The notes: generated from the sequence alone by a model not told the origin. Counted from the first letter of the stretch, positions 3,427 through 25,974 are shown. The stretch is 35,367 bases of DNA from an uncultured Gammaproteobacteria bacterium (GCA_964582845.1 CAZOTW010000004.1:1-35367); one strand, 5' to 3'. Made by a program: numbers and translations.

Positions 3427-3966
3427 TTAGTTGGGGGGATTGCGTGGGATGCGAAATGCGTAAACGTGATTGGCGGCGTCTTGGCGACACATCTTTATGT
3501 GCGGGAAAATAAAACTGTTGGAAACAATCAGCGTTTGCGGTTTTAGCTCGTGGGTCAGCTTTTTCTCCAGTTTTTCCATGCGCCACGGGAGAAGGTAGAT
3601 AAGTACGACGTCGGCGTCTTTAAGGTTCGCGCTCCAAAAACTCCCCCATGTCGTCCACACGCGTCCGCGATACCCCGTCAGGATAGCGCGTAGGTTCGTA
3701 TAAAGGGCTAGAAAGGGGTTTATCTCTATGCCGCGCGCAATTGCCCCTTTTTGGGCAGCAAGGAACAGGAGCCTCCCGTCGCCGGAGCCAAGGTCGTAGA
3801 CGATGTCGCCCTTTTGTATCCGCGCCAGGTCAATCATGGCGTTACTAGCCTTTTTGGTAGTGGGTACAAACGGCGCGCCCGTCAGAAAAGCGATGCACAG
3901 GTAGAGCATGAAAATCACCAGGCAAAATTGGAGGACAAGGATAAATAGAGATAAGGCAAGCGCCAT
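3427..3966 (-). CDS. membrane-anchored class I SAM-dependent methyltransferase
   Basis: N-terminal TM helix, GAPFVPT, VYDLGSGDGR motif I, GIEINP, DADVVLIYL. Confidence 0.9.
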   Translation of the reverse strand: MALALSLFILVLQFCLVIFMLYLCIAFLTGAPFVPTTKKASNAMIDLARIQKGDIVYDLGSGDGRLLFLAAQKGAIARGIEINPFLALYTNLRAILTGYRGRVWTTWGSFWSANLKDADVVLIYLLPWRMEKLEKKLTHELKPQTLIVSNSFIFPHIKMCRQDAANHVYAFRIPRNPPN

Positions 3967-4022: not shown

Positions 4023-4580
4023 TTATTTTACCGGGTCGGCATAGACGACGCGCCGTTTTTGATCAAAATTCCCTTCGCAGGTATAGAGCGTCAATTGGTT
4101 TTTATCGCTCAATATTGACTGTACATCATGCTCGCCTACATCCCGGGATCCACTGACGACGTAGCGTTTCCACGTATTATCGTGTTGAATCTCCATGACG
4201 TCTCCGGGCATTAAAAGGTAGAGATCACGCCACAGGGTTTTCCAGTTGTGGGCGTAGAGTATGACATTCCCCTGTCCGGGAACTGCGGATGTGGCAAGCC
4301 ACGCGACGGCATCCGGAAACATGTCCCAGTCGTTCCCGCGGACAGTCGCCCGCTTAATCGGCAGGTTTTTGCCGATTTTAGGAATATTGATGGCGGTAGG
4401 AGGATCTTTGGTGGCAGAAGTTGGCGTGGGAGATCGGGACGGTGCCGTAGTTGATGGTGTTTTCGATAGCCGCCCCCGTAGGGAAGGTATTGCACCCGTG
4501 CCTGCATAGACAGTAGCTCCTGTGACAAGAGAGAGGATAACCAAAAATACGGTGGTATTTTGAGGTTTAGGAAGTTTCAT
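4023..4580 (-). CDS. sortase
   Basis: N-terminal TM. Catalytic triad motifs GNVILYAH, LTLYTC and KRRVV. Confidence 0.9.
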   Translation of the reverse strand: MKLPKPQNTTVFLVILSLVTGATVYAGTGAIPSLRGRLSKTPSTTAPSRSPTPTSATKDPPTAINIPKIGKNLPIKRATVRGNDWDMFPDAVAWLATSAVPGQGNVILYAHNWKTLWRDLYLLMPGDVMEIQHDNTWKRYVVSGSRDVGEHDVQSILSDKNQLTLYTCEGNFDQKRRVVYADPVK

Positions 4581-5511
4581 TTACCCGCGCGAGCCTGTGG
4601 CCCAGCAGGAAAACAATAAGAGCTGTAGCGAGTGAAATCACAAATCGTGGTAGCGCATAGTTTGAACCAGTCGCGGCTAAAGTATCCGTGGACGCGCCTA
4701 AGACCTGGCCGCCCGTTGAAGCACCTAAGACTTGTCCGCCAGCTGGCGGAGCGGTACAACTCGGGCAACTGGAGCGTCCATCGCTCCTGCCGTCACTCAG
4801 TCCATCGCCCGGGCCGCCACCGTTAGAAGGAGGCGGGGGGACATCAGTGGGCGTAACCGTGGGGTCGTTGGGAACACATTGCTGCTCTTCGTCGTAGTGA
4901 TACCCCTCGGGAAGTACCGGTTGATTCTCCGGAATGTTTGGACATACATCAACAGGAGGAGGCGTACAGGATTCTCCGCCTGTAACTTGTACCCCGTCAA
5001 CATCATATGCATCTGCATCGGGAAAATCGTTAAAATTATCCCGGTTACTTGTATCTGTTATTCGTACGTATTGGGCACACGTTATCCCTTCTGGTACGGG
5101 AACTGTATCATCCTGAGTAACCGTTCCGGCTGCGGTCCAGTTGGTTATTCCGTCTACGGAGACCTCTACTAAAGCAGTTTCATCGGGATATCCCTCGTTG
5201 GTTGCTTCAACAACGATGACTCCGCCGCTAAAGGGATTATCAAAGCGAAGTACAATGTTGCCGCCAAAACCAAGAGAAAAGAAATGTCCATCGACGGTGT
5301 CGTTTTCTGCAATACCCAATGCCGACTCTGGATTGCTCCTTAGGGGATTGACAATGCTTACTGGTGTTCCTCCTTTGGTATTTAGTTGATTAGAAGAAAA
5401 GACGCTATCTGCCCACGGGCCTGGGCCGTCGCCAGCGGCCTGGACATGTACCACTGCTACTCCCAACAACAAACAGCCAAAAACAATAAGGCCTGCAATT
5501 TTTGCTTTCAT
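4567..5511 (-). CDS. sortase-anchored surface protein (LAATG sorting signal)
   Basis: Signal peptide, acidic beta-rich domain (SLGFGG...YVRITD...YDVDGV), Pro/Gly linker, GGPGDGLSDGRSDGRS, GGQVLGAST x2, LAATG, TM helix, basic tail. Confidence 0.85.
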   Translation of the reverse strand: MKAKIAGLIVFGCLLLGVAVVHVQAAGDGPGPWADSVFSSNQLNTKGGTPVSIVNPLRSNPESALGIAENDTVDGHFFSLGFGGNIVLRFDNPFSGGVIVVEATNEGYPDETALVEVSVDGITNWTAAGTVTQDDTVPVPEGITCAQYVRITDTSNRDNFNDFPDADAYDVDGVQVTGGESCTPPPVDVCPNIPENQPVLPEGYHYDEEQQCVPNDPTVTPTDVPPPPSNGGGPGDGLSDGRSDGRSSCPSCTAPPAGGQVLGASTGGQVLGASTDTLAATGSNYALPRFVISLATALIVFLLGHRLARVNETS

Positions 5512-5577
5512 ACGTGTAGCTTAATCCTTATAACATCATCAGAGTGTCGCGTGCAACGGATCAATTTTTAGTACAAA

Positions 5578-6777
5578 CTATATCGTACCCAGAATCCGCA
5601 TCCAGTGTGCATATTCTTTTATCTTCATTGAGGTAAGGCGCCGGTCAAGCGATGCCCGGATATCCTTTCGATTCTGATACAGCGCGTAAAGCAGCCTGGT
5701 GAGGTTGGAGGTTGTCACCAGGTCCCCTTGCACACAATAGCGGCCCATTTTTATGGTTTGAGTAATACCTAGGGTCTTATGTTCATAGGCTATGGCGACA
5801 AACGGCGTTGTCTGGGTAGCCGCGAGTATATTTGCGTGCATGCGCATGCCCACGAGCAGGGCGCATCGGGCGTATATTTTTTGCGCATGATCGGGAGAAC
5901 GAAGAATAATGGGTTTTCTGACCCGCACGCCATGACCCATCATGAGGCGGGTAAGGCGACGTGATACAGATAAGTCAATGTCCCCATGTTTCGGAGCATG
6001 GACCTGCACAATCGGCTGAATGGATAAACCGGTTTTTTGGGCAAACGAAACAAGAGCGCTGGCAACGCTCGCCTCAAGTCGTTGCTGTACGTTTGGTGGA
6101 TACCAATTTCGGAGGGTAACGCCTACGACTGCTTGTGATTTCCTTGGGTTTTTTCCGTGTTTACGAGAAGGAAGAAGCAATCCATGATCCGGACCAAGAC
6201 GCGCATGGAGAAGGCCAAATTTTCGCGCTAGACGTAACGATATGCGTTCACGGATAAAAAGAAGGCATGGGAAAGAAAGTAGCTGGGCAACAAGCGCCGC
6301 CTGCCACCTGTACGCAAAAGGGCCGAAGCCCATGGGTGCGATGATGACTGGTTTTCCTGATCGACGAGCCACAAAAAACGGAACAAGTTGCGATAACAGA
6401 AATATCGATTGCGTTATTCCTTTCCGGGCCCGTAGGTACCCGTTTCCGACGAATATGATGGCATCGGCGTTTTTATAGGCGGCGAGAATATTCGTAAGCG
6501 TTTTATCTATCGTGAGTTGGGGGAACACAAGTTGGATACAAAGTATCGCGCATCGGAGCGCGCGATTAACCAATTTTGTATCCGTAAAAAGAAGCCATGA
6601 TGCCAGTAATCGCATCGTCGGAAGATGTATTTGTTTGGCTTGTGTTTCGGGATCAAACGACTGAATGACGACGTGAGACTTTGGCCGGGCATGTTTAATG
6701 ATGGATAAAAGAGAGAGAAGTTGCGCTTGATCGCCTATATTTTTCGGGCTTGTGGCGTTGGGAATCAGAATCTTCAT
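5578..6777 (-). CDS. polysaccharide pyruvyl transferase family (WcaK-like)
   Basis: NIGDQA, IRERIS, PD and GMRMHANILA...IAYEHK motifs. Confidence 0.88.
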   Translation of the reverse strand: MKILIPNATSPKNIGDQAQLLSLLSIIKHARPKSHVVIQSFDPETQAKQIHLPTMRLLASWLLFTDTKLVNRALRCAILCIQLVFPQLTIDKTLTNILAAYKNADAIIFVGNGYLRARKGITQSIFLLSQLVPFFVARRSGKPVIIAPMGFGPFAYRWQAALVAQLLSFPCLLFIRERISLRLARKFGLLHARLGPDHGLLLPSRKHGKNPRKSQAVVGVTLRNWYPPNVQQRLEASVASALVSFAQKTGLSIQPIVQVHAPKHGDIDLSVSRRLTRLMMGHGVRVRKPIILRSPDHAQKIYARCALLVGMRMHANILAATQTTPFVAIAYEHKTLGITQTIKMGRYCVQGDLVTTSNLTRLLYALYQNRKDIRASLDRRLTSMKIKEYAHWMRILGTI

Positions 6778-6789
6778 AAGAGTGAAGAC

Positions 6790-7335
6790 TTACTTACGCG
6801 AAAGCGCAGGGTCGTCGGCTATGGCGGTGACGACCAACCGTTTGGAGTCCAGAAATCCGGTACAGGTATAGAGGGTGATGCGAGCATCTTTGGAATTGGC
6901 AAGGATTCGCGTGTCGTCGGGTGTAACGACGGATAAAAACGCGACGGTGAATCCTCGGCGTTGTCCGTTTGACAGAAGCACGGTCAAGCGGTCCCCCGGT
7001 TTCACCAGGCGCAGGTTTCCAAGCAGATTTGGCCAATTATGGCCGTACATGATGCTGTTGCCTACGTCTCCCGGTACGGCTGAGGCAGACAAATACGAGA
7101 CGCCCCTTTTGGTGTCCTGCCATTGTCCGGTGGTTATCGTGGCTGGGACAATAGGTAGGGTAATATGGGCCGTAGGGATCGTCAGGACGACCGGGAAGGG
7201 GGTATTGGCTGAAGGAGCAGATAACTTAGGTAAGTCCCGAAATGAGAGGCGTAGCGGCGTTGTACGCTGCCACGTAAGGTACATACCAAACAGTACCAAA
7301 GCCACGCCGAGCGTGAGAAATATACGGTGTGTCAT
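6790..7335 (-). CDS. sortase (second paralog)
   Basis: GNSIMYGH, ITLYTC, KRLVV. Start reassigned to MTHRIF (7335), just after the upstream stop at 7343. Confidence 0.9.
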   Translation of the reverse strand: MTHRIFLTLGVALVLFGMYLTWQRTTPLRLSFRDLPKLSAPSANTPFPVVLTIPTAHITLPIVPATITTGQWQDTKRGVSYLSASAVPGDVGNSIMYGHNWPNLLGNLRLVKPGDRLTVLLSNGQRRGFTVAFLSVVTPDDTRILANSKDARITLYTCTGFLDSKRLVVTAIADDPALSRK

Positions 7336-7342
7336 AGGGGTG

Positions 7343-7978
7343 TTATTTGCGGGAAACCTTTTGGGATTTACGGAGTTTACTAGCAAACCCAAGAAGCATA
7401 CAAGCGACTCCCAGTGCGTATACACTCATAACAAAGAGGACGTCTCCGGTAAACGCCAGGCCCAATACGGCGCCTAACACTTGTCCGCCACGTCCGTCGC
7501 TTCGTCCGTCGCTTCTCCCATCGCTTAGGCCGTCCCCGGGTCCACCCTGGTTGGAAGGAGGAGTTGAAAGACAGCTATAAGAGCTATTTTGTGCTAAATA
7601 CCACCCGCCGTCCAATCCCCACGCGGAGCCGTCCGGAATAGAAATCCAGCCTTCGGATTCAAGTACTTTTATCTCGTCTTCTGTCAGGCTTGATGCTTTC
7701 CACCAATTGGTTTGGATGCCTTCTCCTGAAGCGGAGCAGAAGCATTGAGTGATAAAATCGCGATTCTCTGGATTTTGCGTGTATACGGTATCGCTGCCGG
7801 TATATGTCGCGGTGCTTCCTACTATCCCATGGGTTCCGTTGCCCCAGGAAGCAATCACTTCTCCTTGGGGATTGACGCACGAAGGAAATGTTGGCGTTTC
7901 CGTGGCATAAGCCGCCGTTACCGGAAGAAAGATGGCAAGGACGAAGAGGACGATAAAGAAACGCGCGATACGTTGCAT
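7343..7978 (-). CDS. sortase-anchored surface protein (LAFTG sorting signal)
   Basis: Signal peptide, Cys/Trp-containing domain, GGPGDGLSDGRSDGRSDGR, GGQVLGA, LAFTG, TM helix, KLRKSQKVSRK tail. Confidence 0.85.
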   Translation of the reverse strand: MQRIARFFIVLFVLAIFLPVTAAYATETPTFPSCVNPQGEVIASWGNGTHGIVGSTATYTGSDTVYTQNPENRDFITQCFCSASGEGIQTNWWKASSLTEDEIKVLESEGWISIPDGSAWGLDGGWYLAQNSSYSCLSTPPSNQGGPGDGLSDGRSDGRSDGRGGQVLGAVLGLAFTGDVLFVMSVYALGVACMLLGFASKLRKSQKVSRK

Positions 7979-8063: not shown

Positions 8064-9314
8064 TTACGGCGATTTGGTAAATAGGCTTTTAATATAGTCC
8101 AGAATCATATAAATAATATTCTGATACGGTTTCTCCATAACTATTTTTATATTTAGGTCATTTTTATTGATGACAAGCTCTTTATCTGTGTATCCGTTGA
8201 CATGTATCGTAATGGCGGCGTCGCCCTCGATTATAGGAAGGTTGAAATTACCGTCTATAGCTGTTTTTACGTTTCGATATACTGAAGACACTTCAGCATT
8301 AGCTATAGGTTTACGAAATTGATTTATAACGTGTCCTGTAATAACTCTTGGAGTAAAATACTCCGTGATCACTGATACTGCTTTTCTCGGGTTGCCATCG
8401 TCGTTCCACAGCTTGGTAGAACCTCCGACACTCACCCAGTAATTGATACCGATGAGCTGGTCTACAGAGACAAGTTTCCGAAATGTTTCATTCAAATAGC
8501 GCGCCTGTGCCTCCTCATCCATGGGACCATGAATATCCAGTATCGGTGCGCCGAACTCACCCAAAACCACGCGTCCACCGCTTTGAGCAGCCAGCGCGCG
8601 AATGTCCAAAACCAGCCGATCCGGCGAAGCGACGTAATGATCAATTGTGACAATGCCGTCGAGAGCCAGGGTGGTAGGTTTATCCATAATCAGTTTGGCG
8701 ACATCTCCGTTCATAGAAAAATAGTTTGAAGCCACGCGCTTCCCGATTTGGATAAATGCGTCTTTGGTAACCTGGTATTCGTCAATTAAGAATTTTCTAT
8801 ACCCCCTCACGTCTCCGGTTATTTGCGGATTGCCCGGCCCGCCGTTTTCACACTCCGGGCACCCGCTAAAGATGTCTCCGTCTTCAAATACACCAGGGTG
8901 ATTGAGGATAAAGTCGCGGGTTTTGGTAATGTGCTCCTCGCGCGAAATACCCGTATATCCAAACCACTTCTCCCAGCCAGACCAGTTGCCGCGAAACCAG
9001 ACGTTAAGATGGTATTTCCTTGCAGCGGCAACCCAGCGCTTGAGTATCGGGACAAACTCTTCATCATACGGAGTCGCAATAGCCACATGGGTGGCTCCGG
9101 TATCGGCAATATTTTTTACCTGCGTATCTATGGTTTGGTCAAACGACGGGTCGTTGAGTTTTTCGCGGCTGGCGTCGCGGGAGTATTTCATCGTATCGAC
9201 GGATTGAAACGCCCACCATGTCGCTTTATCTGTAGTAGATGTGACGTTACGTTTCAGAAGCAGTGCGAGTAAAAACACGATAAGAACAATGGAAATAATA
9301 ATAAGTCGCTTCAT
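8064..9314 (-). CDS. membrane-anchored clan GH-A-like glycoside hydrolase with C-terminal carboxypeptidase-regulatory-like domain
   Basis: N-terminal anchor MKRLIIISIV, PECEN (acid/base candidate), VLGEFG (nucleophile candidate), ITGHVIN..PIANAEV..DGNF domain. Confidence 0.7.
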   Translation of the reverse strand: MKRLIIISIVLIVFLLALLLKRNVTSTTDKATWWAFQSVDTMKYSRDASREKLNDPSFDQTIDTQVKNIADTGATHVAIATPYDEEFVPILKRWVAAARKYHLNVWFRGNWSGWEKWFGYTGISREEHITKTRDFILNHPGVFEDGDIFSGCPECENGGPGNPQITGDVRGYRKFLIDEYQVTKDAFIQIGKRVASNYFSMNGDVAKLIMDKPTTLALDGIVTIDHYVASPDRLVLDIRALAAQSGGRVVLGEFGAPILDIHGPMDEEAQARYLNETFRKLVSVDQLIGINYWVSVGGSTKLWNDDGNPRKAVSVITEYFTPRVITGHVINQFRKPIANAEVSSVYRNVKTAIDGNFNLPIIEGDAAITIHVNGYTDKELVINKNDLNIKIVMEKPYQNIIYMILDYIKSLFTKSP

Positions 9315-9367
9315 GTGCCGATATATTATACCTTGAAATACGATCCATCGGTAGCTAGCGTTCAATA

Positions 9368-9952
9368 TTAGGATGGAGGAAAAGACGGATTGCGCGGATG
9401 TTTGTAGGGAACCCGGAAATGAAGCGATTCTCTGATGGAAGAATAATTTTCATTTTCGTCAATTTGTCGAATTATTCTGGCTGGCACTTCACCTACCAGT
9501 GTATGCGGCGGTACATCCCGCGTAACCACGGCTCCTGCTGCTACAACGCTTCCTTCTCCGACGGTTACTCCCGAAAGAATGATTGATCCCGATCCTAACC
9601 AAGCGTTTTTTTCTATCGTTATCGGCTCATTGTAATGTACCCGTCTATTTGTTTTTTGGTCCAAAAAAACATCATTATTTGATGTAAGAATCATGCACCG
9701 AAATCCTATGGCGACATTATCTTGAATAGTAATTTTTTCTTCACCGACTAAAATACATTGTTGGTTAATAAATACATTGTTCCCGATGATAATATTTTTC
9801 GGTTTAAAGAATTTTGAAAATGTGATAAATACGCACCCCTTGCCGCACGATCCGATGTTGCGGGCGATCAAAAAGGAATACAATTTTTGAATGAGGGCGA
9901 TAATATATCCCATAGGAGTTATTATACTACTTTTTTCCCGTCTTTTCGTCAA
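9368..9952 (-). CDS. hexapeptide-repeat (LbH) O-acetyltransferase
   Basis: IIIGNNVFIN, ITIEKNAWLGSGSIILSGVTVGEGSVVAAGAVVTRDVP. The true start may be a downstream Met. Confidence 0.9.
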   Translation of the reverse strand: MTKRREKSSIITPMGYIIALIQKLYSFLIARNIGSCGKGCVFITFSKFFKPKNIIIGNNVFINQQCILVGEEKITIQDNVAIGFRCMILTSNNDVFLDQKTNRRVHYNEPITIEKNAWLGSGSIILSGVTVGEGSVVAAGAVVTRDVPPHTLVGEVPARIIRQIDENENYSSIRESLHFRVPYKHPRNPSFPPS

Positions 9953-11309
9953 ATCGGGATATGCATACGAGCCAATCTTTCGATAAAGGCGCCTGGACAG
10001 TATAGGATTGCTGGTTGGTAAACGTTTCTTCGCGCTGTGAGTGCATCGTTATGGGTGATATGTACGTGACGGTATACGTGTGATGTATTGAAAAGTTGGA
10101 AAGCGTATAGTGTGTATGTTTTCTTCCTTGAGGTAAATAGACCAGAACGTACTGATTATGGATATGTGCAATGATTGGTTCAAAAGGATGTATTGTTTCT
10201 GTTTTTGGAGTCAATATCTGGTTTTTAGGAGTCAATTTCCACCAGGGAATGTTCATTACCCATTGTTTCGCAAGACCAATTTGTTTGGCCCCTTCATACC
10301 GTATTGCTTCCTGCCAGTCGGAATTTCCCCAATGGTTCATAAAATTATCATGATTGGCAAGTTGCCAGATGCCATGAGCTCCGTAGGTGTGTCCTTTTGC
10401 GCCCGAGAGGACGCTTGTCCAGAATGCGTAGCGCTGATCTGACGGCCCGAAGTTGCCTAAAATTCCTTCATACCACGGCTCTAGATTAACAAAGGGGTGA
10501 GTTTTACTGCCACGGCGTGCGGCTTCTATCATGAAACCGGCATTGGACTTGGTATGACCGGACTGAATCGTATTTATATCAAGCCAGGAGGGGTCGCTAT
10601 ACAGTTCGGAGGCAAGACGTTTACTCTGGGGATGCACGGTAAGAAGACGGTGGTGTGTATCGATGTGTTTAATATATACGGCTACCTCTGCCCATTTTTC
10701 CAGTCGGACATGCAACGCCTTGTCCGTATTTGCCGTCGGCAATTTCTCTACAAATGGAATAAGGTGTAATCGTCTTACTGCGCGGATGATGAGTTGATGG
10801 AGACGAAGTGAAGGAGTAAGTTGCAGAAACCCGTCCACTTCTCCCGTTAAACAAAATATGATCGGTAGCTTCCCCCAGCGGGTGATAATTTCCGCCCAGA
10901 GATTTTTCATGGCAGCTACTCCGAATCGGTCGATATGGTGGCCCCAGCTGCCGACGATACACGGCACGATTCCTGCAGCAATAATTTCCCGGATGACGTT
11001 ATCGGCATAATCAAAGTATTGCGTGTTGATGTCACCGTTTGGTAAGAAGGCGCATCCCCCTTCATTTCCCGCGTCGGCGCCCAAAGAGTCAACTTCAGGT
11101 GGAGCGCCGATGACCAAGAGGATAACGGTGAAGCCCTTTTTTGCCCTATCGGCGAGGAGTTTTTGGAGGGCGTTTTTGCTCATTCGCTTGGTCGCCGCAA
11201 ACCACCAGGTATCAGCTAGCCAGAAAAACGGCGTCCCATCGGCATAGGTGAGGTATTGATGATCGGACGAAAGCGTGGGGGCTCCGTGGCGTTGAAGGGC
11301 GTTTTCCAT
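9927..11309 (-). CDS. DUF4038 / GH140 (apiosidase-like) family protein
   Basis: DGTPFFWLADTWW, LTVHP, QSGH, NLEPWYE, GHTYGAHGIW motifs. Confidence 0.8.
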   Translation of the reverse strand: MENALQRHGAPTLSSDHQYLTYADGTPFFWLADTWWFAATKRMSKNALQKLLADRAKKGFTVILLVIGAPPEVDSLGADAGNEGGCAFLPNGDINTQYFDYADNVIREIIAAGIVPCIVGSWGHHIDRFGVAAMKNLWAEIITRWGKLPIIFCLTGEVDGFLQLTPSLRLHQLIIRAVRRLHLIPFVEKLPTANTDKALHVRLEKWAEVAVYIKHIDTHHRLLTVHPQSKRLASELYSDPSWLDINTIQSGHTKSNAGFMIEAARRGSKTHPFVNLEPWYEGILGNFGPSDQRYAFWTSVLSGAKGHTYGAHGIWQLANHDNFMNHWGNSDWQEAIRYEGAKQIGLAKQWVMNIPWWKLTPKNQILTPKTETIHPFEPIIAHIHNQYVLVYLPQGRKHTHYTLSNFSIHHTYTVTYISPITMHSQREETFTNQQSYTVQAPLSKDWLVCISRFDEKTGKK

Positions 11310-11332
11310 ATCCCCTATTGTACCACCGGTGT

Positions 11333-12616
11333 TTACGCGGGTTGATACACGCGTGGCGTAGGTTTTTTTGTGGCCTGCACCAAGCCGGAAAGGATCGTTG
11401 CCGCATTGACCGGCAAGGTGACATCGCTTATTTTTATCGGTTGATCCTGATGAAGTGAGTGTTTGACGATTGCTCCGGGAGCAAGTCCGACCGGCAGATA
11501 ACCCGCGGAATGCTCAATTTTATCGATGTTGCCGTACATGGTGTCTCCGCCGATGCCGTCAAGCGCCGTGCCGGCAGCAAGTTCGGTTTTAGCCACAGCT
11601 ATGGTGGTCGCGCGTGGACTCACGCTATTATGTATGGTTTCTTGTCCAAATAGGACGACCTTCGCAATCGTTCCGGCAACTTCCAGGTGACATAAGTGAT
11701 AGGGCTCAAACAATACATAGCGCGGTCCTTCTCCCAGTCCCAGGTAGCGCAGATATTTTTGCTGATTTTTATCCGAGTGCTCGGCTACCACAAAGATTCC
11801 CGGGAAAAGCTTTTTCCCCAGTATGTAATCCACTACTCCCTCTTGGGGGATTTTATGCCATTGAAACACTTTGAGGGCTTCCTGTACGTCCTCTACTTCC
11901 GGCCCGCGCATACCAAACTGCAGGATATCCATGCCGAAGTAGTTGGCGACAAGTGTCATCTCTATGGACTGTTTGGTGCCGTCGGTGAATGAGACGGTTT
12001 GGCGCACGGACAAGCCCTTGTCATCTGCCCAAGGTTTCATTTCTTCCTGAGTGGCGTGGCGATTGAGATACCGTTTCATGTTTCCGGCAAGAAGCACGTT
12101 GAAGCCCATGAGTTTTGATTGACCGATAAGTCTAGCAAGGGATCCGGGCTGGTCGCCGATGACGTCGGTGATGACGACGCCGTTTTGGTCCGCGAGTTGC
12201 TTGAGTTCGGTTCCGACTGTGGCCTGCAACTCCGGATTCATGGTGACGATGTGTTTGTGGGCGCGGATGGCGCGAAGGGCCACATCCGTGCCGTATGCAA
12301 TCGTGCCGGTAACTTCCATGACGACGTCTGCCGGATACGATTCGATAAGATCGAGGTTATCCGAGACGCATATATATCCCAGGTCTGCTTGCTCCTTTAT
12401 TTTTTGCGGATTACTTTCGACACATGCGGCAAATCCGTGTTCTTCGAGAAATTTTTTGGACTGGTCAACCCTGCGGGTAAGTACCAGGGGGACGCGGATG
12501 CCTTTGGTGTGTTTAATCGAGGAGAGAAACCCAAACCCCATGAATCCCAAACCGGTGACGATAACGTCTATGGGTTGTTTACGGCTCTCGAGTTTTTTCA
12601 GGATGATGTCGTACAT
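11333..12616 (-). CDS. NAD(P)-dependent oxidoreductase with C-terminal SAF domain (homoserine dehydrogenase-like)
   Basis: GLGFMG Rossmann motif, GDQPG, SFTDGTK, PYHLCHLE, LDGIGG...LPVGLA. Confidence 0.85.
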   Translation of the reverse strand: MYDIILKKLESRKQPIDVIVTGLGFMGFGFLSSIKHTKGIRVPLVLTRRVDQSKKFLEEHGFAACVESNPQKIKEQADLGYICVSDNLDLIESYPADVVMEVTGTIAYGTDVALRAIRAHKHIVTMNPELQATVGTELKQLADQNGVVITDVIGDQPGSLARLIGQSKLMGFNVLLAGNMKRYLNRHATQEEMKPWADDKGLSVRQTVSFTDGTKQSIEMTLVANYFGMDILQFGMRGPEVEDVQEALKVFQWHKIPQEGVVDYILGKKLFPGIFVVAEHSDKNQQKYLRYLGLGEGPRYVLFEPYHLCHLEVAGTIAKVVLFGQETIHNSVSPRATTIAVAKTELAAGTALDGIGGDTMYGNIDKIEHSAGYLPVGLAPGAIVKHSLHQDQPIKISDVTLPVNAATILSGLVQATKKPTPRVYQPA

Positions 12617-12662
12617 AAAGAGTAATAATTATATCCTATAGTTAGAATACTGTCAATCTCCC

Positions 12663-14282
12663 CTACCGTTGTTTTGGCAGTGTTGGCTTGGTATTCAGTG
12701 TCTTCAGATATTCGGGCTTGAGTTCATACACGTCCGCAAACGGAAATTGAGCAACCCTGGTATATTTTGACAATTGATTGGTCACACGAATAGCTTTGTA
12801 CGTGAGATCATTATCATCATACGTACGCATCACAATCCAGCGCGCCCAGCGATCGGGACTCGTCGTTGCGCTTTTCCAGTAGGTGCCGGTGCCTTCATGG
12901 ATAAAGCGTTTCATGGGTAGACCCGAAGAAAAGATAATAGCATCGTGCGAAGCGGCGGAGATCAGAATAAATCCTTCTTGGTTTGCCGCGTGGGTTTTGA
13001 GGTATCCGCTTACTTCGCTCACATTTTTTTGGCTACTGCCGACACGTGCGTCATCGATTGTGACGGCATCGTGGTTAGCGATGGAGAAAAAGATCACAAA
13101 AGCGTAGAGCGCAACAAGCGATAGTCTGCCGATTTTTACCCGGTCTATGAGATACCCGATGAAAATTGCAAGAGATGGCATCATCATGATGCCATAGCGA
13201 ACGTTAAACCATGTGTTTCCGGAAATTCCCTGCACAAACAGTACGGAAAATCCGAGATAGAGGGCAAGCACGTTAAACAAAAATGGCGCAAATAATGCCG
13301 TGGTAGCTATCCGCACAGAAGGGATAAGGCGTCGATCCAGCCAAAGGACAACCGCCCCAATAGCTCCCAAGATAGCTACGTATGCCGTGGAGTTAAAAAT
13401 GAGCGCGTAGAGATAGACCTGGATAGACAGGAGCAGGTTCTTTTTGGTCATAAGTACTCCGGCGCTTTCCAGTTGCGTCTGTTGGGTATGAGCAGAAAAC
13501 GGTCCGAATGCAAAGTACAGCGCGTCTTTGAAAATAAGCTGGTTCCACAAAAGCCACAAAAATATGCCGAATCCTGCAAGCGTACAAAATAGAATAAAAT
13601 ACCCTTCGGCCACGCGGTATCCCCGCTTTCTCCATGTATGAAAAACGACAAGTGCTGCTCCATACGCCAAGAGAAACCATCCGTCATACCGCACGAGTGT
13701 GGAAAGCATGATCCAAAACGCCGCGCGGATAAGAGCAAGAATGTCCTCTGTTTTATGCCATTTGGTCAGTTCGTAGACGCCGACTGTCATAGTAAAAAGA
13801 AGCAGAAGCTCGGTCATGGCGATAGATTGCAGATATAAAATATTGAGATTTAGAATAAAGACGGCAACACCAAAGATTCGGCCAAAGAGACCAACGCCGA
13901 GCAATCGCAAAAACAGGTAAATGACCACACCGGTGGCGACAAATGCAATCATGGACTGCAGGGCACCCGCCAGTCCTGAATGCCACATAAAATCATTCCA
14001 GATCGTCGGGATCATGAGAATGTGGTTCAGTGGGAGCCATACCGACCCCAACTGCGCTAAACCAGGCTTGAGGTTCTCTACGACACGGCGTCCGATGTCC
14101 AGATGACTCCGGGCGTCGTTGTAGGCAAGACCTAAGCCATTGGCGTAATACGTGTAAAATGACGCAATGGACACGACGCTTAGTACAATTATCAGGAAAA
14201 CAAGTGCATGACGTGTAGACCACGCTCCTATGCGTTGGAATGGTTGTTTCGGAATAGTGAGAGTCAGTTCGCGTATGTTCAT
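12663..14282 (-). CDS. GT-C fold (ArnT/PMT-like) polytopic membrane glycosyltransferase
   Basis: More than 10 TM segments. First-loop YNDARSH...GSVWLPL, MTE, RYDGW, NVRYG motifs. Confidence 0.75.
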   Translation of the reverse strand: MNIRELTLTIPKQPFQRIGAWSTRHALVFLIIVLSVVSIASFYTYYANGLGLAYNDARSHLDIGRRVVENLKPGLAQLGSVWLPLNHILMIPTIWNDFMWHSGLAGALQSMIAFVATGVVIYLFLRLLGVGLFGRIFGVAVFILNLNILYLQSIAMTELLLLFTMTVGVYELTKWHKTEDILALIRAAFWIMLSTLVRYDGWFLLAYGAALVVFHTWRKRGYRVAEGYFILFCTLAGFGIFLWLLWNQLIFKDALYFAFGPFSAHTQQTQLESAGVLMTKKNLLLSIQVYLYALIFNSTAYVAILGAIGAVVLWLDRRLIPSVRIATTALFAPFLFNVLALYLGFSVLFVQGISGNTWFNVRYGIMMMPSLAIFIGYLIDRVKIGRLSLVALYAFVIFFSIANHDAVTIDDARVGSSQKNVSEVSGYLKTHAANQEGFILISAASHDAIIFSSGLPMKRFIHEGTGTYWKSATTSPDRWARWIVMRTYDDNDLTYKAIRVTNQLSKYTRVAQFPFADVYELKPEYLKTLNTKPTLPKQR

Positions 14283-15796
14283 ACAGAGTGTTTCCTAAAA
14301 AACTCTTTTCTAATGAGCAGAGCATAGGCTATGCATGTGAAGGAGATACCGATTCCCTGATAGATCTTGACGACAGAGGAAAGCGGAATGCGGCCATTCA
14401 GCCATAGGTTGTAGACTAGGGATCCAGTTTTACCTTGATCGATCAGTTGTTTGTTGTACTCGTACGTGTAGGGAATAAATGTCACCAGGTGTTCGGCTTC
14501 CTGTTTGGGCGGAACCTGCGTAGTGGTAAACGCACCAAACGTAGAGACATAGATGCCGTATCCGGCGATAGCCAAAAAAGCAAGACCAAAGAGAATGCTT
14601 CGTTTCCACCGTTCTATCGCCAAACCAATTCCAGTGGAAAGAAGTGCCGTTGCCGGCAAAAGATACCGCGGGCCAAATGACCAACCGCCCCACGGATCGC
14701 CGAATGTAGAGTAGAGGGTGACCGTGAGTCCGGCCATGGTCAAGATGACGACTGCCGCCTTTTGTGTCTCTTTTTGTTTAAGAGCAAGAAAAAGTCCCGC
14801 CGTGCCAATAAATACGATAGGACTATAATAAAGCCATCCGCGCTCATTGCTTATAAGCAGTATGTATAGTCCGTTGAGCTGTAGGCGTGAATAAAACGGA
14901 AGCGTTGGCGCATACGGATCCCGTGTTTTTTTTACTGTTGTCGTTTTTGGCTTTGGCGGATAGTCTGATCTTCCCAAAAATTGGCTCAGAATCGTATAGC
15001 TTCCTGTGACTTGTTTGTTGTACCAGCCAAATGTGCCAAGGAGCGGAATAAATCCGAGAAGTAAAAATACGAGAACGAGTTTTAGCTTGATTGTAACCAC
15101 GCGGCCTTCGTCTATACGAGTGAGATGTTGTCCGGCGGCGTAGAGCATAAGAGGCAAAAGAATAATCGCATTCGGAATATCGATGAGAAGCCCAGCTCCA
15201 TACAGAAGACCGAGAAGGGTATTTCGAAGAAGCCCTGGTTTATGAAACAGCGTGAGGGTAGCAAGAAGAATAACAAGTATGCTTAAGTGGTGCTGGGTAA
15301 GCGTGAGCGCGTACGTGAGGGCGCTGGTACCAAACAAAAATAGGAAGCCGCTTATGAGAGACGGGATCATACCGGCTCCGAGCTTGCGCGCGATAAGTAC
15401 AACGAGGAGTAGATTCACAAACGCAACGAGAGTGGTTGCGCCGTACGTCGCAAGCTGTGGTATGCCGAAAAGATTGCCGAGGAGGTAAAACGGCAACACC
15501 GCAAACGCCACGCCCGGAGTAAAAATAGAAAAATATTTTCCGTTGTACAAAACGAGATCCGGCGCGGCGAGTCCGGCCTGCGCGTTGTTAAAGAAAAATG
15601 TTTTGGATTTGACAATCGCTTCAACGAGTGCGTATCTGGAATTGCTTCCGGAGCTTTCGAATGGTCCCGTAAGGTTCCCTTCCGTGCTTTGCTGATAGGC
15701 TAAAGAGCCGTTTGGCGCTTTATTCCCCTTCACGACCATCGCAAGAAGGACGGTGATGATAAAACCAAAAGCCAGCATGCATAGTGCGCGCTTCAT
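14279..15796 (-). CDS. second GT-C-like polytopic membrane protein
   Basis: Many TMs. SRYALVEAI, SIFTPG, RGWLYYSP, WGGWSFGPRYLLP motifs. Confidence 0.7.
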   Translation of the reverse strand: MKRALCMLAFGFIITVLLAMVVKGNKAPNGSLAYQQSTEGNLTGPFESSGSNSRYALVEAIVKSKTFFFNNAQAGLAAPDLVLYNGKYFSIFTPGVAFAVLPFYLLGNLFGIPQLATYGATTLVAFVNLLLVVLIARKLGAGMIPSLISGFLFLFGTSALTYALTLTQHHLSILVILLATLTLFHKPGLLRNTLLGLLYGAGLLIDIPNAIILLPLMLYAAGQHLTRIDEGRVVTIKLKLVLVFLLLGFIPLLGTFGWYNKQVTGSYTILSQFLGRSDYPPKPKTTTVKKTRDPYAPTLPFYSRLQLNGLYILLISNERGWLYYSPIVFIGTAGLFLALKQKETQKAAVVILTMAGLTVTLYSTFGDPWGGWSFGPRYLLPATALLSTGIGLAIERWKRSILFGLAFLAIAGYGIYVSTFGAFTTTQVPPKQEAEHLVTFIPYTYEYNKQLIDQGKTGSLVYNLWLNGRIPLSSVVKIYQGIGISFTCIAYALLIRKEFFRKHSV

Positions 15797-16931
15797 AGAA
15801 TTTCTCCCATATATTCAATAAGCTTCTCCCCTACTATTGTAGGCGAAAAATTTTCAGTAAACATCCGGTATCCTTGGGTCGCGATGCGTTTGCGAAGAGA
15901 TGGGTTGTTTTTCAATTCAACGATGGCATCCACAAACGCGTCCGTGTCGGCAGGCGGCACGATGTAGATATTCTTTTTGTTCGTAAATACGCTGCGGATA
16001 ACCGGCGCGTCGGCAGTCACGACGACTTTGTTAAGCGATAATCCCTGGTACACTTTGTTCGGGATCACGCGATCAATACTTGGGTGTTTGGCCAGAAAGC
16101 CCAGAAAGATGTCGCCTTTTTGGGCAATCGGGATATGTTCTTCTTGCGGAATGTCGTAGTAAAAAGACATATTGGTGAGCTTGAGTTTTTTTGCGCGCGT
16201 GATACTTGCGTCAAACGTCTGTCCCCTGTTGCCGATCATGTCAAAATGAATGTCTTTGTCGCTCCGTAGTCTCCGCGCCGCCTCTATGATGTACTCTACC
16301 CCGTGAATCGGGCTATAGAGACCATAATACGTCACATTTATTTTGTTTGTTGTATTGGTATACGGTGTGTACGGATAAAATTTATCGTCCGCACCTAGGG
16401 CAACCGTTCGGATTTTACTTTTCGGCACGCAGAAAATACGCTCCATAAATTCCTGCTGAAACGGCGTGTCTGCCATGACCGGTACACGAGTCCCTCGCCG
16501 AATTTGGCGAGTTTCGCAAGAAAGGATCCTTTCGACAGAATGCCCTGCTCTTCGGTAAAACCGGTGTAGAAAATGAGAAGAGGATTAAACACTAATTTTT
16601 TCCTGAATATCTTGGCCACGAACCACGCCGGAAATACGTCGAAGTGTCCGGGATACCCGACGTAGATGACGTCGCTTGCGGCAATGCCCTTGCGATGTTT
16701 GATAATTTCACTGACGATGCGATACTTGCGAAGCACGCGTTTGGCAAGCTGCAGCCAGCCCATTTCCTGCTTTTTGTTTAATGTGGTCACCGTGACTGCG
16801 GCGTTGACCTCTACGACGCGCGCACCGTTATCACGAAGTCCAGCGATCGTAAGCTTATTGGACGTATATGTGGGATCATACGTGCCGAACATACAGATGA
16901 CCGGGTGTTTTTTCCTTATCCTGTTATCCAT
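15793..16931 (-). pseudogene. GT4 glycosyltransferase split by a frameshift near 16478
   Basis: The N-half ORF (16395..16931) and C-half ORF (15793..16476, ..ADT..YYGLYSPIHG..PNKVYQ) overlap in different frames and together give one GT-B protein. Confidence 0.8.
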
Positions 16932-18781: not shown

Positions 18782-19696
18782 TTACTGCAAAAATTGTTTT
18801 GTAGTTTCGGCAATGCTCCATTTTGCATCAAGCTTGGATTCAATTGACTTGCTTTTCCGCCGACAATACATATTAACTACATAGATATAAAAACTATGGA
18901 TGGGATATCGAATAAATTGTTTGAATCGACATTTCCAAAGTAACCTTGAAGGAATATAGTATTCTCTATCAACTAGCTCTGAAGGAAAATAATCTTTAAA
19001 CCGTTGTTGTGCAGATTCGAATCGGGTATTTTGACGTATTTGCTCCCGCAATGTTTGAACAGAACGAAACATTATTATAGCATTCGGGACAAATCTATAT
19101 TTATATCCTTTCGATATACACGTTAGGTACATATACGTATCATCGGCAAACATCGTGCGTGGTATTGTAATTCCTTTAACAAATTCTTTTTTAGATGCAA
19201 GCAACTGACCAGTTACACAGAAAATACTGTGTCCGTCACGGACGGAATATTTCAACTCTTGGTAAGCTTCAACGGTTTTATTCACTGCAAATTCAGTAAA
19301 TGTTTTTGCTGAGAGTGGCTTTGAGTTACCGCTCGTTAACATCACTGTTTTATGCTTAATTAACGGTTTTATTACATTACTCAAAACGTATTGGTCATTC
19401 AAGACAACATCCGCATCTGACTGAACAAGAATATCCGTTGTTAGAGATTTATATATCTTGTTATATCTTGAAGATTTTCCAACTCTGTTCTTATACGCAA
19501 TGACTTCGATTTTTTTGTGATTCTGGGATTTTGCAAGCTTGACCGTGTTATCTGTTGATCCATCTGAGACAATCAGAATTTTTTCGATCCTAAAACCGAT
19601 TTCCTTCTGTCGTAATACAGACGCTATATGTCGTACTATATTTTGTCCCTCGTTATATGCACATACTGCATATGTGACTGTGGGCATAGTTTTCAT
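18782..19696 (-). CDS. GT2 glycosyltransferase (AT-rich paralog)
   Basis: VCAYNEG, SDGSTD, SDAD, ADD. Confidence 0.9.
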   Translation of the reverse strand: MKTMPTVTYAVCAYNEGQNIVRHIASVLRQKEIGFRIEKILIVSDGSTDNTVKLAKSQNHKKIEVIAYKNRVGKSSRYNKIYKSLTTDILVQSDADVVLNDQYVLSNVIKPLIKHKTVMLTSGNSKPLSAKTFTEFAVNKTVEAYQELKYSVRDGHSIFCVTGQLLASKKEFVKGITIPRTMFADDTYMYLTCISKGYKYRFVPNAIIMFRSVQTLREQIRQNTRFESAQQRFKDYFPSELVDREYYIPSRLLWKCRFKQFIRYPIHSFYIYVVNMYCRRKSKSIESKLDAKWSIAETTKQFLQ

Positions 19697-25126: not shown

Positions 25127-25198
25127 TGGACACGGAGGGATTTGAACCCCCGACATCTGCAATGTGAATGCAGCGCTCTACCGCTGAGCTACGTGTCC
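25127..25198 (-). tRNA. tRNA-Val(CAC)
   Basis: Acceptor stem GGACACG/CGTGTCC, anticodon arm CTGCA-TTCACAT-TGCAG, T-loop TTCAAAT. No encoded CCA. Confidence 0.95.
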
Positions 25199-25257
25199 TA
25201 TGTGTTATGCATTATTATACCTTATGGCCGATTGTACACACCAGGTGTGGGTTCGTA

Positions 25258-25286
25258 TTGACACATAAGGAGAGACTGTATACATT
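25258..25286 (+). promoter_or_regulatory. promoter of RAYT (leaderless)
   Basis: TTGACA-17-TACATT, 7 nt before the ATG at 25294. Confidence 0.6.
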
Positions 25287-25293
25287 GTGGTTA

Positions 25294-25974
25294 ATGCCTT
25301 ATCGATTCGTTCCTTTTGCGACTGATCAAACGTATCATATTTTTAATCGAAGCGTAGCGCGTCAACCAATATTCTTGAATAGTAAGTACTACGGGCGCAT
25401 GCTTGATACGATCAATTATTATCGTTTTGATACTCTACGCCTACGTTTTTCCCATTATCATCGTCTTCCCCCGAAACAAAAATACACATTTATGCAAGAG
25501 CTTGAGAGTTCGCATGTAAATATTGTCGATGTGCTCGCGTTTTGCCTCATGCCAAACCACGTTCACTTTCTACTCCGGCAAACTGCGGAAAACGGCATTT
25601 CAGGATTCATGAGGAATATACAAAATAGTTACGCAAAGTATTTTAATACCAAAACGAAGCGATCCGGTGCGGTCTTTCAAGCTATGTTTAAGAGTGTTCG
25701 AATGGAATCTGAAGAACAATTGCTTCACGTTAGCCGATATATTCACTTAAATCCGTTTACCTCATTCGTCATAAAAGATATGAGTGGTTTAGAGGAGTAT
25801 GCGTGGTCTTCGTACGGTTCTTACACGAAAAATCAGGTTTACCCATTTGTGACGACAGATTTGATACAAAGTCATTTTTCAAGCATTGAAGAATTACAGA
25901 GTTTTACGACAAATCAGGCGGACTATCAGCGCGCACTTGCAGAAATCAAGCATTTAACACTTGACAATCCTTAG
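25294..25974 (+). CDS. rayT: REP-associated tyrosine transposase (RAYT, IS200-like HUH Y1)
   Basis: YHIFNRS..IF, AFCLMPNHVH (HUH), YIHLNP, WSSY. Start moved to 25294 because the longer ORF overlaps the tRNA. Confidence 0.92.
   Translation: MPYRFVPFATDQTYHIFNRSVARQPIFLNSKYYGRMLDTINYYRFDTLRLRFSHYHRLPPKQKYTFMQELESSHVNIVDVLAFCLMPNHVHFLLRQTAENGISGFMRNIQNSYAKYFNTKTKRSGAVFQAMFKSVRMESEEQLLHVSRYIHLNPFTSFVIKDMSGLEEYAWSSYGSYTKNQVYPFVTTDLIQSHFSSIEELQSFTTNQADYQRALAEIKHLTLDNP

Follow-up and report, generated by a model that had tools for sequence, protein, structure and literature searches.

Putative sortase and single-substrate cassettes with a composite sorting tail beside a glycan locus in a Microgenomates-type Patescibacterium

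Organisation of the locus and its two substrates

The 35,367-nt stretch of DNA analysed here (the window) belongs to a 1.37-Mb genome whose six frames contain 11,499 ORFs of 50 aa or more, and it carries two pairs of genes in which a secreted protein, A or B, precedes a sortase (Table 1). That each secreted protein lies directly upstream of its own sortase had been noticed in a first-pass annotation, and the ORFs confirm it: the ATG of sortase 1 at 7335 follows substrate A after a gap of 7 nt, and sortase 2 overlaps substrate B by 14 nt. For sortase 1 the frame is also open from a GTG at 7425, which would give a longer protein. The pyruvyl transferase said to separate the pairs is also there, as its Pfam match attests; against TIGR03609 it scores 6.5e-32, under the cut-off of that model. 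Between 24378 and 8064, every gene of the neighbouring glycan locus is on the minus strand; among them are a GT2-GT2-GT4 fusion of 1561 aa, three GT2 genes and one GT4. A search of the genome found no SLH domain.

Table 1. Position of the genes and tail features discussed in the text.
Feature	Coordinates	Strand	Description
Substrate A	7343-7978	-	211 aa; ORF call, no Pfam family
A, repeat module GGPGDG-LSDG-RSDG-RSDG-R	7490-7546	-	predicted disordered, pLDDT 47-55
A, VLG boxes QVLGAVLG joined directly to sorting motif LAFTG	7445-7483	-	
A, C-terminal membrane helix and basic end SKLRKSQKVSRK	7346-7444	-	
Sortase 1	6790-7335	-	181 aa; PF04203, E 8.2e-20
Polysaccharide pyruvyl transferase, CsaB-like	5578-6777	-	between the two pairs; PS_pyruv_trans PF04230, 3e-32
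Substrate B	4567-5511	-	314 aa; ORF call, no Pfam family
B, full SDG-CPxCT module: GGPGDGLSDGRSDGRS, then S-CPSCT	4753-4818	-	
B, two VLGAST boxes (GGQVLGAST x2), DT, sorting motif LAATG	4666-4740	-	
B, membrane helix and conserved end HRLARVNETS	4570-4665	-	
Sortase 2	4023-4580	-	185 aa; PF04203, E 2.7e-19
433-aa membrane-anchored protein, tentatively hydrolase-like, CarboxypepD_reg-like C-terminal domain	8064-9365	-	
Two polytopic membrane proteins (539 and 505 aa), GT-C-like	12663-15796	-	9-10 hydrophobic segments each

Substrate A consists of a signal-like helix, a globular head of about 115 residues rich in Cys and Trp, and the tail. Residues 30-140 are predicted with a pLDDT of about 95; Foldseek gives the head no PDB match at E<=0.001, and its fold is unrecognised. 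The 337 homologues that make up family A, from Patescibacteria/Microgenomates, are all unnamed or "hypothetical". Substrate B has a signal-like helix, a beta-sandwich head (pLDDT mostly above 90 over residues 30-180), a Pro/Thr linker and the tail. There are 23 PDB matches for its head at E<=0.001, the majority to CBM32 and F5/8 type C domains with a TM-score by target of 0.5-0.65, the leading one being the N-terminal region of PAPP-A. The model thus places the head of B among CBM32/discoidin-like, lectin-like folds, and sugar binding is predicted for it; the head of A may conceivably bind glycan as well. Although B resembles the CBM32 and F5/8 type C domains by fold (for example 2j7m, 7d29 and 2j1a), it has no sequence-family match, and its head stands alone on a sortase tail, not as an appendage of a glycoside hydrolase.

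Neither substrate matches a Pfam family at E<=0.01, nor an NCBIfam model even at E<=10, a search in which the HMMER filters may drop weak short matches. The LPXTG cell-wall anchor models of Pfam and NCBIfam leave the C-termini of both unmatched; the classical ones are PF00746 and TIGR01167. Like LPXTG anchors, A and B are secreted proteins with a C-terminal motif, a hydrophobic helix and a basic end, but their motif is LAxTG, with 40-60 conserved residues in front of it.

The shared tail and its distribution

It had been claimed that A and B share a C-terminal tail and have no visible N-terminal similarity, and BLASTP indeed aligns their tails alone (29/77 identities, E 4e-5), finding no similarity between the N-terminal parts. 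At the N-terminus both have a hydrophobic signal-like helix, and at the C-terminus a second helix with a basic end behind it. The stretch GGPGDGLSDGRSDGRS (residues 145-160 of A) is identical in the two proteins, and from PPSN onward they agree at 20 of 21 residues, yet the codons differ at 14 of the 16 positions of the identical stretch. This agrees with the earlier suggestion of conservation at the protein level without recent duplication, and on such a comparison the two tails would owe their likeness to a lineage consensus kept under purifying selection. Since GPGDG, SDG.SDG and QVLGA are each confined to A and B among all the six-frame ORFs of the genome, the sharing is not due to chance. 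Structure models predict both tails to be disordered. CPxCT is absent from the tail of A, and the ending HRLARVNETS of B recurs behind other N-domains. The family libraries and literature that we searched did not contain the shared peptide.

A profile of the tail, run against 1.84 billion proteins, retrieved 217 representative clusters at E<=0.001. Among the best 150 representatives the tail lies at or near the C-terminus in every case (150/150), and the N-domain is unlike that of A or B in 142. The order of its elements is Pro/Thr linker, GGPGDG-xSDG-xSDG, often SSCPxCT, one or two VLGAST boxes, the sorting motif, the membrane helix and the basic end. The tail is a composite, lineage-wide module, probably for sorting and as a stalk, and is undescribed in those libraries and papers. 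The x-S-D-G unit occurs in just 2-4 copies, and the Lys within the repeat alternates with Leu and Arg. In the 117 CPxCT-carrying representatives, a set picked by profile and pattern, the residues of S-D-G-x-S-D-G-x-S-S-C-P-x-C-T are kept in 111-117. One variant of the tail also has two Cys, spaced differently (…GCGSHDC…). SDG-CPxCT occurs with no membrane helix in at least 11 of the 150 representatives, which end in AP.TGR.. (6) or GWK (5), so the peptide can occur without a classical sorting signal; a few of the seven unclassified helix-less rows resemble them. A VLG box precedes all five of the LPxTG/LPxAG-type signals seen. With respect to family A, LA.TG is present in the tail of 119 of the 120 best hits and DG.SDG in only 53, about half of the family being without the repeat.

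Sortase class and sortase-substrate pairing

Both enzymes are membrane-anchored, sortase 1 at its N-terminus, and score well above the PF04203 cut-off of 26.6 bits (71.3 for sortase 1 and 69.6 for sortase 2). Their catalytic motifs are GHNW (His), TLYTC (Cys) and SKRLVV (Arg) in sortase 1, and AHNW, TLYTC and QKRRVV in sortase 2; the two are 36% identical. In sortase 1 these three motifs align with those of class C structures, and its closest solved relatives are pilus-specific class C enzymes (5k9a, E 2.4e-9; 2xwg, 6.5e-7), while the sole PDB match of sortase 2 is the class D-type structure 2kw8. Neither passes an NCBIfam class cut-off, with scores of 28-39 bits and TIGR01076 as the nearest miss (38.9 against 39.35).

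Kattke et al. (2016; PMC5148588) describe SrtE1 and SrtE2 of Streptomyces coelicolor as class E sortases with an LAXTG sorting signal, and give as hallmarks of the class a conserved Tyr in the beta3/beta4 loop and a long beta6/beta7 insertion. As class E is portrayed there, our pairs resemble it in having Ala instead of Pro as the second motif residue, a membrane-anchored enzyme with an extracellular catalytic domain, and a substrate that carries motif, helix and basic end. They differ in that each enzyme here serves one adjacent substrate, whereas class E sortases are housekeeping, and in that VLG boxes, and in many cases the SDG-CPxCT peptide, lengthen the signal. The earlier view of LAxTG as a class E-type signal therefore stands only for the substrates, with their LAFTG and LAATG. 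The class E label was rejected for both enzymes, since they score 35.3 and 30.1 bits with the class E model NF033747 (cut-off 160) and PDB sequence searches with either at E<=0.01 returned no structure of that class. LAxTG-type specificity would thus arise outside class E sortases.

Sortases with a single target are known elsewhere: the class GN "marine" sortase TIGR03784 with its one target, and the class B SrtB with IsdC. As in these systems, the sortase gene here adjoins a single substrate gene of its own, whose product has a non-standard motif, but the setting is Patescibacteria, the tail module is another one, and several motif-specific clades may coexist in a genome. Against TIGR03784 our enzymes score 36 and 21 bits (cut-off 158).

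A sortase gene follows 16 of 22 SDG-tail genes directly and on the same strand. The six with no adjacent sortase are one each in loci L025 and L038 and two each in L033 and L040; one of the L033 genes sits at a contig edge. No other gene recurs as a partner near SDG-tail genes. In a tree of 34 sortases, labelled by the motif type of the neighbouring substrate, all seven neighbours of [FY]AxTG signals form a single clade (support 100/98), the four neighbours of TLAATG another that includes sortase 2 (99/100), and the three neighbours of LSxT[SA]G a third (94/88). Eleven of the twelve GLAxTG neighbours fall in one clade with sortase 1 (98/95), and the sortases beside LPxTG-type signals lie in a distant clade (100/100). 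The label changes 9 times on this tree against a mean of 20.4 after shuffling, a value attained in none of 200 shuffles; with labels shared among kin and motif type tied to substrate family, co-evolution of sortase and motif is no more than indicated. The cognate pairing that the first-pass annotation had suggested is supported by these results.

The glycan locus and the reading of the tail

In the loci of families A and B, the hydrolase-like gene is present in 12 of 12 and the two GT-C-like genes in 11 and 10 of 12. The SDG repeat is found in just two of the 12 that carry the glycan block. The hydrolase-like gene is the conserved upstream neighbour of both families, and only 2 of 13 orthologues of its 433-aa product match Glyco_hydro_cc (best E 0.0041). 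The two GT-C enzymes announced earlier are a more qualified case: the 539-aa and 505-aa proteins of the window pass no Pfam cut-off and their PDB profile searches were empty, but 3 of 12 orthologues of the former match PMT_2 (PF13231, best E 6.8e-10) and one of 12 matches PMT (PF02366), and about 21% of the members among its ESM Atlas neighbours carry PMT_2. The 505-aa protein matches NF047440, "putative glycosyltransferase", at 2.2e-13 (49.8 bits, cut-off 200), and one of 12 orthologues is TMEM260-like at E 0.059. The proposed tie to the glycan locus holds in another form, through the N-domains, which adjoin the block in 10-12 of 12 loci, and not through the repeat. The glycan connection goes with the N-terminal domains, and the tail goes with the sortase.

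We consider it probable (about 0.7) that these are dedicated cassettes of a sortase and a single substrate, with a composite sorting tail and with heads tied to the glycan locus. In this Microgenomates-type Patescibacterium there would be two independent ones, each sortase being dedicated to its one adjacent substrate. By analogy with established sortase biology, the N-terminal signal peptide would direct export of the substrate, and its C-terminal helix and basic end would keep it in the membrane; the sortase from the next gene downstream, itself membrane-anchored, would then cleave the L-A-x-T-G motif and link the substrate covalently to the cell envelope, with peptidoglycan the likeliest acceptor. 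Motif, helix and end would be matched to a particular sortase clade, and A and B would most likely be anchored in the wall, where they bind the glycan made by the neighbouring locus or act on it. Patescibacteria are ultra-small, live attached to other cells and have surface proteins that are mostly unannotated; the tail offers a searchable tag for one or two such proteins per genome, each paired with its expected processing enzyme. The conserved five-gene glycan block, with a lectin-like, presumably wall-anchored protein, two GT-C-like enzymes and a hydrolase-like protein, is a testable unit, and the small motif-specific sortases might find use as orthogonal ligation enzymes.

The first-pass annotation went further, to a coupled system in which the SDG(R) repeat is an acceptor or tag for the glycosyltransferases of the locus. 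Staphylococcal Ser-Asp repeat adhesins are glycosylated by SdgA/SdgB, and here too an acidic, Ser-Asp-containing repeat lies just upstream of the sortase signal; the unit, however, is x-S-D-G in its few copies followed by CPxCT, and it does not travel with glycan genes. Both pairs end a co-directional glycan locus whose block is strongly syntenic with families A and B, the 539-aa protein has PMT_2-like and PMT-like orthologues, a Pfam family named for protein O-mannosyltransferases, and the peptide is Ser-rich and conserved as recognition sites are. Nevertheless, the coupled system seems quite unlikely. Besides the scarcity of the repeat in the family A and B loci, the glycan trio lies within the fetched flanks of just 4 of the 22 SDG-tail genes. 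Moreover, the 539-aa family is absent from 14 of 15 genomes (93-99% completeness) that have the SDG tail on another N-domain, the fifteenth, G072, being a positive control (E 2.5e-178), and the GT4 of the locus is generic when compared with SdgA (NF047880, 68 bits, cut-off 800). Since PMT_2 matches are plentiful in these genomes (29 in G000 and 14-33 in five relatives), some other enzyme could glycosylate the repeat.

Most improbable is the idea that each sortase, in the style of class C pilus sortases, builds a covalently linked fibre or layer from its one substrate instead of anchoring monomers. One enzyme per substrate gene and the pilus-specific nearest structures of sortase 1 would suit it, but 50 family-A sequences have no invariant or near-invariant Lys, so no pilin-motif nucleophile is apparent, and the Lys of the repeat is replaceable, as noted above; the class C model gives only 30-32 bits (cut-off 160), and we found no pilin-like fold for A, B being lectin-like.

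Within the dedicated-cassette reading, our best guess, a weak one, is that the SDG-CPxCT peptide serves as a stalk embedded in the wall, which a disulfide or a bound metal would staple, and is maybe modified too; its conservation exceeds the needs of a passive spacer, which weakens this. Alternatively, it would be a lineage-wide modification or recognition handle for another enzyme or ligand (a PMT_2-type GT-C, a thiol-disulfide oxidoreductase or a metal site), which would couple sorting and modification, though not through this locus. The near-invariance of SDGxSDGxSSCPxCT inside a disordered stretch, the variant with displaced Cys, the abundance of PMT_2 and the helix-less carriers all favour a handle, but with the sortase as the only recurring neighbour and about half of family A lacking the repeat, we consider it unlikely. 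More tentatively than the cassettes themselves, one might imagine a "sortase code", a possible if doubtful combination in which at least five clades of dedicated sortases each read an extended signal of their own, about 60-90 residues long and made up of a VLG box, a motif variant and a helix and cytoplasmic end that match, and SDGxSDGxSSCPxCT is a new post-translational handle, be it a glycosylation sequon or a redox or metal loop, required for the processing or wall embedding of the stalk. If so, the SDG peptide would rank with tags such as PEP-CTERM and not as a spacer. Genomes with SDG tails have only about three sortases each, and G000 has three.

Two substrate-sortase pairs with a common tail

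Substrate A, sortase 1, a pyruvyl transferase, substrate B and sortase 2 are five consecutive genes on the minus strand (see the table). The open reading frames and the Pfam matches thus bear out the first-pass annotation, which had described two closely spaced substrate-sortase pairs with the transferase between them. The substrates themselves match no Pfam family, and none in NCBIfam even at E<=10. The similarity of A and B is confined to their tails, the C-terminal modules with the sorting motif; the two sortases are 36% identical. Within the tails, A and B share an identical stretch of 16 residues, GGPGDGLSDGRSDGRS, although 14 of the 16 codons differ, in agreement with the earlier claim of a peptide conserved as protein. 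Moreover, six-frame translation of the complete genome sequence (G000, 1.37 Mb) gives 11,499 ORFs of 50 aa or more, and GPGDG, SDG.SDG and QVLGA each occur only in those of A and B. Codon divergence and genome-wide uniqueness together therefore point to selection on the peptide, and they rule out both chance and a recent duplication as its origin.

Features of the window and of other contigs (C numbers) of the same genome
Feature	Position	Strand	Remarks
Sortase 2	4023-4580	-	14-nt overlap with B; Pfam E 2.7e-19
Substrate B	4567-5511	-	314 aa
Pyruvyl transferase	5578-6777	-	CsaB-like; Pfam 3e-32
Sortase 1	6790-7335	-	181 aa from ATG; 7-nt gap to A; Pfam E 8.2e-20
Substrate A	7343-7978	-	211 aa
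Methyltransferase	3427-3966	-	NF041081, 4.3e-17, below cut-off
Five-gene block	8064-15796
GT4-type ORF	15793-16476	-	227 aa; Glycos_transf_1
GT4-type ORF	16395-16931	-	178 aa; no Pfam match
GT2/GT4 fusion	19693-24378	-	1561 aa
Y1 transposase ORF	25168-25974	+	IS200-like; PF01797, 2.5e-9
PMT_2 match	C14:13968-14447
PMT_2 match	C26:14067-14531
VPNTG protein	C27:3268-4602		445 aa
Third sortase and 232-aa protein	C31:10829-12160

The tail module and its sortases in the lineage

Homologues of A (n=337) and B (n=252) are all unnamed or "hypothetical", and those with an organism named by the source belong to Patescibacteria or Microgenomates. Their tails follow one plan: a Pro/Thr linker, then (N/S)PGGPGDG-[LRK]SDG-[RK]SDG-xS, often SCP[SE]CT-x-[AP]-P, a single or double VLGAST box and, after the sorting motif, a hydrophobic helix with a basic end. 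A search of 1.84 billion representative proteins with a profile built from 17 tails gave 217 representatives at E<=0.001, 79 of them at E<=1e-10. In all of the best 150 of the 217, proteins nearly all of ~80-400 aa, the match lies at or near the C-terminus; the head is that of A in 5, that of B in 3 and very varied in the other 142. Of the 117 representatives with CPxCT, 111-117 retain the core S-D-G-x-S-D-G-x-S-S-C-P-x-C-T, a figure inflated because the set was picked by profile plus pattern. The sorting motifs downstream, again among the best 150, are [FY]AxTG (48), LSxT[SA]G (27), MAxTG (21), TLAxTG (16), GLAxTG (8) and LPxTG (1). AlphaFold models of A and B leave the module disordered (pLDDT 42-55).

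At least 11 short secreted proteins among these 150 carry SDG-CPxCT, the repeat plus CPxCT, and stop a few residues after it with no membrane helix, ending in AP.TGR.. (P0343, P0364, P0369, P0372, P0374, P0375) or GWK (P0335, P0346, P0366, P0378, P0380). They represent either a short-tailed signal or another use of the peptide.

This composite tail module is real and conserved, and it is undescribed in the libraries and literature searched. No Pfam or NCBIfam model contains the SDG-CPxCT/VLG module; no paper on SDGRSDG, VLGAST or GQVLGA was found among the matches listed, which had matched LAATG or LAXTG; and a literature search for Microgenomates, sortase and "surface protein" together found none. 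A clustering of CPR protein families reports a sortase family as near-ubiquitous in Microgenomates and, in the passages covered, makes no mention of substrates (Meheust et al. 2019, PMC6744442); PMC13278184 names sortase in passing only.

At E<=1e-5 the tail profile matched 45 of 401 same-class genomes, usually once in each. Up to 10 kb on either side of 30 matches was fetched and annotated with the window's proteins as queries, yielding 22 SDG-tail ORFs, the window included, once an 87-aa false pattern match in locus L031 was dropped. The tail co-occurs with an adjacent sortase, which lies directly downstream on the same strand in 16 of the 22. The other six comprise L025, where a sortase lies 1.3 kb off, L038 (1497 aa), and two ORFs each in L033 and L040; of the L033 pair, one adjoins a contig edge and the other encodes an 1804-aa protein. 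When all neighbours were clustered against one another, no partner apart from the sortase recurred beside SDG-tail genes. Sortases that serve a single substrate are known, and by analogy the A and B cassettes would work in the same way; they are dedicated sortase-substrate pairs with a composite sorting tail.

LAxTG had been read as a class E-type signal, and the A/B motif is indeed of the class E type (PMC5148588). The enzymes, however, are not class E: no NCBIfam class model reaches its cut-off (scores of 28-39 bits), and the closest sequences of known structure belong to class C, D-type and A sortases.

Thirty-four sortases from the fetched loci were placed in a maximum-likelihood tree, each labelled with the sorting motif of the substrate next to it. 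[FY]AxTG (7 rows, support 100/98), TLAATG (4 rows including sortase 2, 99/100) and LSxT[SA]G (3 rows, 94/88) each form one clade, and 11 of the 12 GLAxTG rows group with sortase 1 in a single clade (98/95). Enzymes near LPxTG/LPxAG signals, including the genome's third sortase, form a distant clade (100/100). The labels require 9 changes on this tree, a count reached in 0 of 200 shuffles, whose mean was 20.4. This indicates that sortase clades and substrate motifs have co-diversified, and falls short of proof because kin share labels. All five LPxTG-type signals seen have a VLG box in front of them; the box is therefore an element found generally upstream of the lineage's sorting signals. The third sortase, part of whose upstream region is masked N, is followed directly by a secreted 232-aa protein whose end consists of VLGVSTLPVAG (…GQRVLGVSTLPVAG), a helix and KGKKRG. 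Elsewhere in the genome, a protein ending in VPNTG and a helix adjoins a pair of genes that, judged by sequence alone, look PilN/PilO-like and may belong to a pilus platform.

Glycan genes and the substrate heads

The first-pass annotation had tied the pairs to a glycan locus and had proposed a coupled sort-and-glycosylate system, with the SDG repeat as glycan acceptor or recognition tag. We compared 12 loci in which a family A or B gene stands beside a sortase (L015, L016, L018-L022, L024, L026, L036, L037, L042; L043, a 6.7-kb contig with fragments, was left out). A 433-aa membrane-anchored protein lies directly upstream in 12 of 12, with the 539-aa membrane protein present in 11 and the 505-aa one in 10. 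The tie to glycan genes thus holds for the heads, but it does not extend to the repeat, which occurs in only 2 of these 12 loci, the rest having Gly/Ser/Asn-rich or short Gly-rich spacers. Conversely, the GT-C pair and hydrolase-like gene are found in the fetched flanks of only 4 of the 22 SDG-tail ORFs (two in the window, L015, L026). The 539-aa family profile has no match in 14 of 15 genomes (93-99% complete) that carry the SDG tail on another head; the fifteenth, G072, matched at 2.5e-178 and served as positive control. The tail travels with the sortase and not with the glycan genes, and the glycan link is a property of the heads. Of the proposed mechanism, sorting and a glycan connection survive in part, whereas the point stressed there, a repeat that serves this locus as acceptor, does not. 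The analogy with staphylococcal-type Ser-Asp glycosylation also fails here. SDG-CPxCT may still be glycosylated by an enzyme from elsewhere, since the genomes hold 14-33 PMT_2-type genes each.

The 539-aa and 505-aa proteins have 9-10 hydrophobic segments each, and profile searches of PDB sequences gave no matches for either family; their GT-C nature has only indirect support. The 433-aa protein is only tentatively a hydrolase; its family profile matched PDB sequences weakly, at the C-terminal beta-sandwich only. Both heads have confident models. That of B has 23 PDB matches at E<=0.001, mostly to carbohydrate-binding modules of the CBM32 and F5/8 type C kinds. That of A, in which four Cys and several Trp are invariant, has none in PDB or BFVD by Foldseek at the same threshold, and in the ESM Atlas no usable feature match, only unrelated families at TM 0.4-0.54. 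Family A has no invariant Lys, which disfavours pilin-type polymerisation.

Flanking genes

A five-gene block (505-aa and 539-aa membrane proteins, 433-aa anchored hydrolase-like protein, family-A protein, sortase) is kept across several families of the class (the window, L015, L021, L022, L024, L026, L036, L037, L042), with family-B versions in L018 and L020. The PMT_2-type GT-C family is greatly expanded, with 29 matches in G000 (22 above cut-off) and 14-33 per genome in five others of the same family (1.0-1.6 Mb). For the pyruvyl transferase, an SLH-domain protein was sought as a partner to read its product, and none was found in the 93%-complete genome.

The membrane-anchored, protein-lysine methyltransferase-like gene after sortase 2 was rejected as part of the system: its orthologues in six same-family genomes occupy a conserved housekeeping neighbourhood (presumably thrS, infC, rplT and pheT, from sequence starts only) beside different cassettes. 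As different sortase cassettes adjoin it across genomes, the site looks like one of cassette exchange. Further upstream of A, a GT4-type gene is seemingly split into two overlapping ORFs, which may reflect a frameshift or two genes. The large fusion combines two GT2 domains and a C-terminal GT4 with a middle region (residues 780-1140) of ~13 hydrophobic segments, and the transposase ORF lies just past the upstream end of the glycan locus.
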